This document shows, piece after piece, positions 19,814 to 20,123 of a stretch of DNA of 28,049 bases. The position numbers and the translations under genes are program-made. Each line of letters starts with the position of its first letter. Positions within the stretch are counted from its first letter, which is position 1. This stretch comes from a virus (Duplodnaviria > Heunggongvirae > Uroviricota > Caudoviricetes), in IMG/VR virus record IMGVR_UViG_2597490083_000007; one strand, 5' to 3'. Under the pieces are notes generated by a model that saw nothing but the letters and a program-made list of their open reading frames with translations, was not told the origin of the DNA and did not search any database.

Positions 19814-19888
19814 TGGAGCGGGCAGCGGGAATCGAACCCGCATCATCAGCTTGGAAGGCTGAGGTAATAGCCATTATACGATGCCCGC
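19814..19888 (-). tRNA. tRNA-Gly (anticodon UCC)
   Basis: 75-nt cloverleaf read by hand: acceptor GCGGGCA/TGCCCGC, T-loop TTCGATT, anticodon loop CTTCCAA, 3' CCA encoded. Confidence 0.85.
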
Positions 19889-19891
19889 ATA

Positions 19892-19967
19892 TGGTGCCGA
19901 CTACCGGAATCGAACTGGTGACCTACTGATTACAAGTCAGTTGCTCTGCCTGCTGAGCTAAGTCGGC
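19892..19967 (-). tRNA. tRNA-Thr (anticodon UGU)
   Basis: 76 nt: acceptor GCCGACT/AGTCGGC, anticodon stem ACTGA/TCAGT with loop CTTGTAA, T-loop TTCGATT, CCA encoded; one A-C mismatch in the T-stem. Confidence 0.75.
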
Positions 19968-19969
19968 GC

Positions 19970-20046
19970 TGGCCCACCACCGAGGACTCGAACCTCGGAC
20001 CGTCAACTTAGAAGGTTGATGCTCTATCCGGATGAGCTAGTGGTGG
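19970..20046 (-). tRNA. tRNA-Arg (anticodon UCU, reads AGA)
   Basis: 77 nt with a perfect cloverleaf: acceptor CCACCAC/GTGGTGG, D-stem GCTC/GAGC, anticodon stem TCAAC/GTTGA with loop CTTCTAA, T-stem CGAGG/CCTCG, CCA encoded. Unusual C1:G72 first base pair. Confidence 0.75.
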
Positions 20047-20047
20047 T

Positions 20048-20123
20048 TGGTGGCCCTTGCTGGACTTGAACCAGCGACCTGGCGATTATGAGTCGCTCGC
20101 TCTCACCACTGAGCTAAAGGGCC
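20048..20123 (-). tRNA. tRNA with CAU anticodon (Ile2/lysidine type or elongator Met; Ile2-like by resemblance)
   Basis: 76 nt: acceptor GGCCCTT/AAGGGCC, anticodon loop CTCATAA, T-loop TTCAAGT, CCA encoded. Resembles enterobacterial ileX-type tRNA as far as I recall it; lies 1 nt from the next tRNA. Confidence 0.8.

Follow-up and report, generated by a model that had tools for sequence, protein, structure and literature searches.

A four-tRNA cassette of lambdoid prophages downstream of Q in a decayed Shigella-type prophage and its probable role in rare-codon decoding

The IMG/VR virus record IMGVR_UViG_2597490083_000007 (Caudoviricetes) is a stretch of 28,049 nucleotides (nt), hereafter referred to as the window, in which a tight cassette of four transfer RNA (tRNA) genes occupies positions 19814-20123. 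The cluster had been noticed in an initial annotation made by a model from the sequence alone, and its presence is confirmed. Exactly four tRNA genes were identified by ARAGORN in the window, all on the minus strand, with the coordinates and anticodons first given (the strand had not been named). All four cloverleaves were also accepted by the Rfam model RF00005, above its gathering score of 29 and with E-values from 6e-14 to 6e-11. The genes are the following, in the order of their transcription:

20048 to 20123, minus strand: tRNA of Ile2 type (anticodon CAU), ARAGORN and RF00005 at 71.2 bits
19970 to 20046, minus strand: tRNA-Arg (UCU), ARAGORN and RF00005 at 60.5 bits
19892 to 19967, minus strand: tRNA-Thr (UGU), ARAGORN and RF00005 at 69.8 bits
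19814 to 19888, minus strand: tRNA-Gly (UCC), ARAGORN and RF00005 at 64.9 bits

The order Ile2, Arg, Thr, Gly runs on the strand of the upstream antiterminator gene Q. Successive genes are separated by 1, 2 and 3 nt, in agreement with the 1-3 nt first reported, and all four encode their CCA end and keep full cloverleaves. A permissive Rfam scan of positions 19100-20330 returned nothing credible beyond these four tRNAs; the remaining matches were rejected as antisense tRNA look-alikes or as lying far under their gathering scores. Among relatives of the cassette, the Gly alleles of 13 loci carry the compensatory replacement of C6:G67 by U6:A67, and alleles of the tRNA in second position carry either A3:U70 or G3:C70. 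Compensatory stem changes are expected only if the structure is under selection, and they suggest that the cassette tRNAs are under structural constraint.

The four genes do not share the same ancestry. The first one is identical at 75 of 76 positions (98.7%) to ileZ of a phage carrying Shiga toxin (Stx) 2a, Stx2a_F349 (AP012530), which was used as the Stx comparison phage throughout, and at 69 of 76 to ileX of Escherichia coli K-12. By inspection, it lacks the features of an initiator tRNA, namely C1xA72 and an anticodon stem with three G:C pairs. Its acceptor stem GGCCCTT/AAGGGCC provides C4:G69 and C5:G68, and the pairs 4:69 and 5:68 are those that E. coli TilS relies on (PMC11947777). Copies identical to it are named tRNA-Ile by the Prokaryotic Genome Annotation Pipeline (PGAP). 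These features agree with the Ile2 type initially proposed and predict a lysidine-dependent reader of AUA. The second gene is 75% identical to the host argU, 82% (81.8%) to argN of the Stx phage and 83% to a Lys(UUU) tRNA of strain UMNK88. The unusual C1:G72 pair pointed out in the initial annotation is real, the acceptor stem reading CCACCAC.../...GTGGTGG-G-CCA, and it is common to the window tRNA-Arg, argN and the UMNK88 Lys(UUU) tRNA. The identity determinants of E. coli ArgRS are A20 and C35. Both appear to be present by inspection, the D-loop ATCCGGATA, numbered from A14 to A21, placing an A at position 20 and the anticodon being U34-C35-U36. The Arg allele of the window and that of the majority are distinguished by one base of the variable loop (GGTGCGAGG to GGTCCGAGG); the former is otherwise seen only in two Shigella-lineage loci (L134 and L140) and two IMG/VR loci.

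The two genes that follow are of host type. The tRNA-Thr is identical to the host thrU at 74 of 76 positions, both differences lying in the D-loop and the anticodon arm being unchanged, and this allele is present in 27 surveyed loci. The tRNA-Gly, first said to resemble glyT, is in fact identical to K-12 glyT over 75 of 75 positions. No homology to host thrU or glyT was found beyond the mature tRNAs. By these identities the cassette is shown to be a mosaic, in which a pair of phage-lineage genes precedes a pair of near-copies of single-copy host genes. The mosaic origin that had been hinted at is supported because the Ile2 and Arg genes are of phage type and the Thr and Gly genes of host type.

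Upstream of the cassette, on the same strand, four features were delineated:

20300 to 20995, minus strand: full-length antiterminator Q gene, 231 amino acids (PF06323 at 300.5 bits over residues 6-222; phrog_304 at 353 bits)
20288 to 20316, minus strand: pR'-like late promoter with putative function, TTGCAA (20316-20311), 17-nt spacer and TATATC (20293-20288), from alignment with three same-Q prophages
20212 to 20233, minus strand: tR'-like intrinsic terminator, a short GC hairpin and seven T, from a terminator scan and alignment of relatives
20133 to 20161, minus strand: promoter-like site with putative activity, TTGCAG (20161-20156), 17-nt spacer and TATTAT (20138-20133), from a scan and conservation

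The location of the tRNAs just downstream of a Q-like gene and a tR'-like terminator was therefore correctly recognized at the outset, the intact Q ending 176 nt upstream of the first tRNA. The pR'-like site overlaps the end of Q, and the hairpin follows about 60 nt further on in relatives. At the terminator position, relatives have CCCGC-N6-GCGGG and then six or seven T; the window stem is one pair weaker than in these aligned relatives. The fold stability of the whole Q-to-terminator leader is not exceptional (z = -0.48), and the tR' call depends on the conserved pattern of a hairpin with a T-run rather than on folding energy. The -10 hexamer of the pR'-like site is TATATC in the window versus TATATT in the three same-Q relatives. 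With this T-to-C change at the last and most conserved -10 position, the late promoter of the window may be weakened.

The promoter-like site closest to the cassette, listed by the scan as TTTGCA-18-TATTAT, is a second site of sigma-70 type. Between TATTAT and the first tRNA base lies a GC-rich leader of 9 nt (consensus TCTGCGCCC), which resembles the discriminator of host tRNA and rRNA promoters. When 43 distinct upstream contexts drawn from 125 loci were compared, the hexamers and spacing of TTGCAN-17-TATTAT were found to be kept in nearly all, including the Stx2 phage, while the spacer varies. The mean information in 15 de-replicated sequences amounts to 1.17 bits for the -10, 0.80 for the -35, 0.45 for the spacer and 0.33 upstream. 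In the window the site is intact, and 22 other loci have an identical one. The cassette probably has its own sigma-70 promoter and may be expressed in lysogens.

The same cassette is found in many other genomes. Two intact E. coli prophages (L001 and L002) carry Ile2-Arg-Thr-Gly at 99% identity, followed by a gap of about 680 nt and then by holin, lysozyme and terminase genes. The stretch homologous to the window opens 17 nt before the first tRNA in L001 and 97 nt before it in L002. Other prophages have different flanks; there, the shared block consists of the 17-nt leader and the four genes and ends at the last base of tRNA-Gly; upstream neighbours seen are the window-type Q, a DNA methyltransferase and the insertion sequence (IS) IS1. 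This cassette or its Lys variant, over at least 80% of its length, occurs in 604 of 5,426 complete E. coli genomes and is also present in isolated phages. The pattern of the position-2 scaffold was retrieved from at least 120 IMG/VR viral contigs and, among 185,579 species representatives, from only two Shigella-lineage genomes with four copies each. Four complete cassettes, three Arg-type and one Lys-type, lie in IS-ridden prophage remnants of Shigella flexneri SFBU1023 (L134, L137-L139), and as many in those of ECMA0423 (L135, L136, L140, L141). In each of these two genomes, one cassette copy has lost 1 nt from the Thr acceptor stem, which shows that decay of the cassette does occur. In the Yersinia enterocolitica phages YeP1-3 (MK733259-MK733261), a cluster about 84% similar was observed over 97% of the four-tRNA query, which suggests that the cassette or parts of it extend beyond Escherichia and Shigella. 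The cassette is widespread and has been annotated before in E. coli prophages, and the copy in the window is itself covered by public annotation. It is an already known kind of feature, and the novelty implied by the initial annotation is unsupported. A scaffold-based survey of 128 loci gave the following architectures:

Ile2-Lys(UUU)-Thr-Gly, the commonest form: 67 of 128 loci
Ile2-Arg(UCU)-Thr-Gly, the form of the window: 26 of 128
Ile2-Lys-Arg(UCU): 6 of 128
Ile2-Arg(UCU): 6 of 128
Ile2-Lys-Lys-Gly: 4 of 128
scaffold with UAU, alone: 3 of 128
Ile2-Arg(UCG)-Arg(UCU), the Stx type: 1 of 128
truncated or rarer architectures: the remaining 15 of 128

Among these loci, the anticodons of the two middle genes vary. 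The C1:G72 scaffold of position 2 carries UCU, UCG, UUU, UAU or UGU in different prophages (variant loci at L003 6323-6399, L009 2578-2654, L010 2824-2900, L007 3095-3171 and in IMG/VR). The UGU anticodon was seen on this scaffold in one E. coli prophage, one base away from a Lys allele, and in every position-2 UUU allele the near-universal U33 is replaced by C33. At position 3, the thrU-like scaffold carries UUU for UGU in L008 (2657-2732) and in 5 IMG/VR loci. This variant, annotated as tRNA-Lys by PGAP, combines a single-base anticodon change with one other substitution.

The initial annotation had placed the cluster at the position of ileZ-argN-argO in Stx-converting phages, and the comparison bears this out. 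The tRNA trio of Stx phages is on record for 933W and VT2-Sakai (PMC4631060; see also PMC7946995). As in these phages, the window cassette comes after Q and the late terminator and before the first late cargo or lysis gene. With Stx2a_F349 it shares the first tRNA, the C1:G72 scaffold of the second, a homology that begins 17 nt upstream of the genes, and the conserved promoter-like site (TTGCAA-17-TATTAT) 9 nt upstream of them. However, argN has the anticodon UCG in Stx2a_F349 whereas the second gene of the window has UCU, and the third gene is argO (UCU, on an unrelated scaffold) instead of a thrU copy. The Stx2a_F349 cluster has no Gly gene, leaves 13 nt before its third tRNA and is followed by stxAB, where the window has a noncoding spacer of 674 nt. 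Its Q, of 162 amino acids, belongs to another family than the 231-residue Q of the window. The Ile2-Lys(UUU)-Thr-Gly cassettes of E. coli lambdoid prophages and phages, such as UMNK88, IHE3034, PhiR47_1 and vB_EcoS-689R5, have the same spacing, leader and flanking logic and are 94-95% identical overall. They differ by UUU at position 2, C33, U73 and other scaffold changes, and AAA is not a rare codon.

Other known arrangements were also compared. A tRNA-Asn(GUU)/tRNA-Thr(UGU) pair lies directly 3' of Q in SfI, Sf6, ST64T, PS3 and phage 21, which are lambdoid or P22-like phages of Shigella, Salmonella and E. coli; a rare-codon rationale was given for ACA in these phages, while Asn has no codon-usage rationale in SfI (PMC3636060). 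Thr(UGU) after Q and the argument of an ACA bias are thus common to this pair and the window, but the gene set and number differ. In the K-12 host operon thrU-tyrU-glyT-thrT, upstream of tufB, glyT and thrU are 100% and 97% identical to the cassette genes and are parted by tyrU and 116 nt, in contrast with 3 nt in the cassette. T4 and T5 likewise have tightly packed tRNA genes that are processed from one precursor; codon supply has been invoked for them, and evasion of PARIS in addition for T5 (PMC12409363, PMC10264068). Both are virulent phages with other sets of tRNAs, which diverge in the anticodon arm from the host targets, whereas two of the four window genes are host-identical in that arm.

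The codon-usage comparison suggested for the late genes and ipaH of the prophage was carried out for the four cognate codons. The sum of AUA, AGA, ACA and GGA per 1000 is as follows:

79 genes of K-12 (host sample): 17.3
late genes of the window: 35.3
ipaH of the window: 56.7
lysis and terminase genes of L001: 40.7
stx2AB: 103

For synonymous enrichment over the host, AUA, AGA, ACA and GGA rank 3, 4, 6 and 8 of 59 codons (P about 0.0003 for a random set of four), and they are the top four of the 14 NNA codons. Their wobble partners AGG, GGG and ACG rank 1, 5 and 12 of 59. The enrichment of the cognate codons also extends across 82 related loci. In the genes flanking Arg- and Lys-type cassettes, AGA and AAA show small differences in the direction predicted by codon supply, and no difference in synonymous fractions, among loci that are not independent.

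The favoured explanation, which we hold to be probable, is that of a mobile lambdoid-prophage tRNA cassette raising the supply of rare-codon decoders, the codon match being observed and the effect being what we infer from it. The mobile unit would comprise the 17-nt leader and the four CCA-encoding tRNA genes, lodged in the late-operon leader between Q and tR' on one side and the lysis genes on the other. One precursor transcript would be made on induction by Q-antiterminated read-through from pR': the tRNAs are downstream of the terminator, and polymerase modified by Q would therefore continue into them, in the manner accepted for stx in Stx phages. The sigma-70 promoter abutting the first tRNA would probably be a second source of transcription. 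RNase P would then cut each 5' end, and exonucleases would trim the trailers of 1-3 nt back to the encoded CCA, following the established scheme of E. coli tRNA processing. Host TilS is expected to convert C34 of the CAU tRNA to lysidine and thereby to direct it to AUA. Together, the four tRNAs would increase decoding capacity for AUA, AGA(/AGG), ACA(/ACG) and GGA(/GGG), codons that are rare in the host, where each of them has one or two tRNA genes, and 2-3.4 times more frequent in the prophage genes and ipaH. In the dead prophage of the window, the cassette survives intact, as an additional copy among the four that the matching Shigella genome contains.

Several points weigh against this explanation. 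The host baseline is a sample of 79 K-12 genes and not the actual Shigella host. Acquired DNA is generally enriched in these codons, so the match shows an opportunity, not a benefit. In a published comparison, tRNA-carrying lambdoid phages were neither better nor worse adapted in their codon usage than tRNA-free ones (PMC4631060). The commonest sister cassette has Lys(UUU), whose codon AAA ranks 35 of 59, so that codon supply can not explain the whole family. Finally, Q-driven expression may be lost in the window because of the T-to-C change in the -10 of pR' and the IS-broken region upstream of Q.

The surroundings of the cassette indicate what has become of the prophage. The following features were identified on both sides:

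19140 to 19813, minus strand: noncoding spacer of 674 nt from tRNA-Gly to the former holin, 99% identical to L001 and L002
17680 (left end approximate) to 19139, plus strand: ISEc20-like element of the IS110 family (NCBIfam transpos_IS110, Pfam PF02371)
about 3701 to 17653, minus strand: lambda-like tail genes including TipJ, Lom/OmpX-like, FII and FI, from profile matches
848 to 2599, plus strand: IpaH-family gene (NCBIfam IpaH_Shig at 563 bits)
20986 to 21345: RusA, following Q

The general layout is that of a lambdoid late operon, Q, the terminator and the tRNAs all being on the minus strand and the spacer leading to the holin in L001 and L002. Homology with the spacer of these relatives reaches position 19140, 7 nt before the holin ATG of L001, where the IS element starts. 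The spacer is treated as noncoding because its two small open reading frames (ORFs; 19340-19636 and 19554-19769) match no Pfam or PHROG family, and nothing is annotated by PGAP in the corresponding segment of L001 and L002. At 19200-19174 on the minus strand, some 35 nt ahead of the place where the holin gene began, a terminator-like hairpin would shield the lysis genes against transcription from the putative private promoter. Altogether 8 terminator-like hairpins were found on both strands of 19100-20400, against an expectation of 1.2 +/- 1.3, and a perfect inverted repeat of 12 base pairs (bp; 19309-19320/19355-19366) is followed by a T-run on the plus strand.

About 700 bp of noncoding DNA and an IS110-family element had been described as standing in the place of stx. 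The gap and the IS element are real, but the spacer is conserved tRNA-to-holin DNA rather than a stand-in for stx. By tblastn, StxA and StxB gave only chance-level matches in the window (E of 0.12 or higher) and none in the spacer; stxA and stxB, which lie downstream of the tRNAs in Stx-converting prophages, are absent there. A remnant of an stx site was rejected on the lack of any stx trace and on the identity of the spacer with that of non-Stx relatives. The IS element is 99.3-99.6% identical to annotated E. coli copies of ISEc20. The overlap of the two ORFs that make up its transposase (17917-18897 and 18770-19114) points to a frameshift. Searches by tblastn detected no remnants of holin, lysozyme or terminase in the window, and the ISEc20-like element has replaced the segment from holin through major capsid, that is the lysis, packaging and head genes. 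Beyond RusA, an IS3-family element (21549-22705) and IS1 elements break the early region. An ORF of 62 amino acids (21345-21533, minus strand) matches only the C-terminal quarter of phrog_2565 and is a gene fragment, apparently truncated by the IS3-family element. Some 200 nt upstream of the ipaH start at 848, the sequence GTATCGTTTTTTTACAT (636-652, plus strand) fits the MxiE-box consensus at 16 of 17 positions, with a chance expectation of 0.02 per window. The locus is that of S. flexneri SFBU1023, at 99.5% identity over 8 kb including the IS junction, and a further match, at 99.3%, lies in ECMA0423, a genome that is labelled E. coli. The window is a decayed, dead lambdoid prophage in a Shigella-type chromosome.

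In such a context, the tRNA genes might be an inert relic, no longer expressed or used and merely undecayed. The deletion from holin through major capsid, the interrupted early region, the altered pR' -10 and the weakened tR' stem all speak for this possibility, as does the Thr acceptor-stem deletion in another cassette copy of the matching genomes; moreover, a target of 310 bp easily escapes IS insertion by chance. Nevertheless, all four genes have full cloverleaves with high scores, the cassette-proximal promoter-like site is intact and identical in 22 other loci, and the Thr and Gly genes match functional host genes nearly or exactly, which makes a relic improbable. An ordinary chromosomal tRNA operon merely lying beside prophage DNA was also considered in view of the (near-)identity of Gly and Thr to chromosomal glyT and thrU, the resemblance because of which 5,425 of 5,426 E. 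coli genomes match part of the query. The cassette itself is restricted to the 604 genomes mentioned above, where it is invariably surrounded by phage genes, occupies varying chromosomal sites and is often present in several copies. Isolated phages and at least 120 IMG/VR viral contigs carry it as well, and the K-12 arrangement upstream of tufB is a different one. A chromosomal operon is refuted by these prophage-only contexts, multiple copies and gene order, and the phage-borne nature assumed in the initial annotation stands.

A more elaborate alternative is that the cassette mainly replaces host tRNAs cut by defence nucleases (PARIS AriB, P2 Old, Gifsy-1 HepS) and sustains late translation. 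P2 Old destroys the host tRNA-Thr(UGU) encoded by thrU, the prime target in P2-lambda interference, and phage Thr(UGU) tRNAs rescue; they are resistant only if a CNG motif is changed and the anticodon stem is shortened as well, and host thrU in excess protects little or not at all (PMC12445682). For AriB, the targets are Lys(UUU), Thr(UGU) and Asn(GUU), cleaved at U36-AAUC/A41, the slash marking the cut (PMC12409363), and HepS, triggered by a lambda-type J protein, cuts Thr, Ile and Ser tRNAs (PMC13043305). The species carried after Q by lambdoid phages include precisely the three targets of AriB, Lys and Thr in 67 of 128 cassettes and Asn and Thr in SfI. At the positions where host tRNA-Lys has the AriB site U39-C40/A41, the Lys alleles, besides their C33, read G39-U40-U41. 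In the Thr alleles of L001 (9158-9233) and L002 (9255-9330), positions 42-43 are changed (TCAGT to TCATC), which removes a CNG motif and two pairs of the anticodon stem; resistance to Old is reported to need both kinds of change. Two further loci have TC or CC at Thr positions 42-43. In the window, on the contrary, the Thr anticodon arm ACUGA-CUUGUAA-UCAGU is that of thrU, with both CNG motifs and U36-AAUC/A41 intact, and the Gly gene is identical to glyT, so these two tRNAs can not be nuclease-resistant variants. All four anticodons closely fit codon demand, and we know of no nuclease that specifically targets Ile2(CAU), Arg(UCU) or Gly(UCC). Counter-defence is consequently plausible for the relatives of the cassette but unlikely as the main role of the window alleles.

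Codon supply and defence could also be combined in a joint reading, which we regard as tentative and rather doubtful, of a self-promoted unit expressed in lysogens, with evolvable middle scaffolds and a dosage effect in Shigella. The conserved tRNA-type promoter, TTGCAN-17-TATTAT with its GC-rich leader of 9 nt, would drive the cassette in lysogens. Single-base anticodon changes would retarget the middle tRNAs among ANA codons, position 2 being U-N-U with all four N and position 3 being UGU or UUU on the thrU scaffold, and codon demand and PARIS, P2 Old and HepS would tune them jointly. In wrecked Shigella prophages, four copies would raise the dosage of rare single-copy tRNAs and aid AT-rich virulence genes such as ipaH.

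Overall, the interpretation given in the initial annotation is largely right and supported, and the annotation of the window is settled: a standard tRNA cassette of lambdoid prophages in a dead, ipaH-carrying Shigella prophage. The only fresh leads are the conserved promoter-like site and the anticodon and allele variation of relatives, with its link to defence. For temperate phages, the match between anticodons and codons is an unusually clean support for codon supply. The private promoter, the switching of anticodons and the Lys C33 alleles could link stx-adjacent tRNAs with the targets of defence nucleases, Lys(UUU), Thr(UGU) and Asn(GUU). Expression of the cassette in lysogens, if it occurs, could also have an effect on the translation of Shiga toxin and of Shigella effectors.

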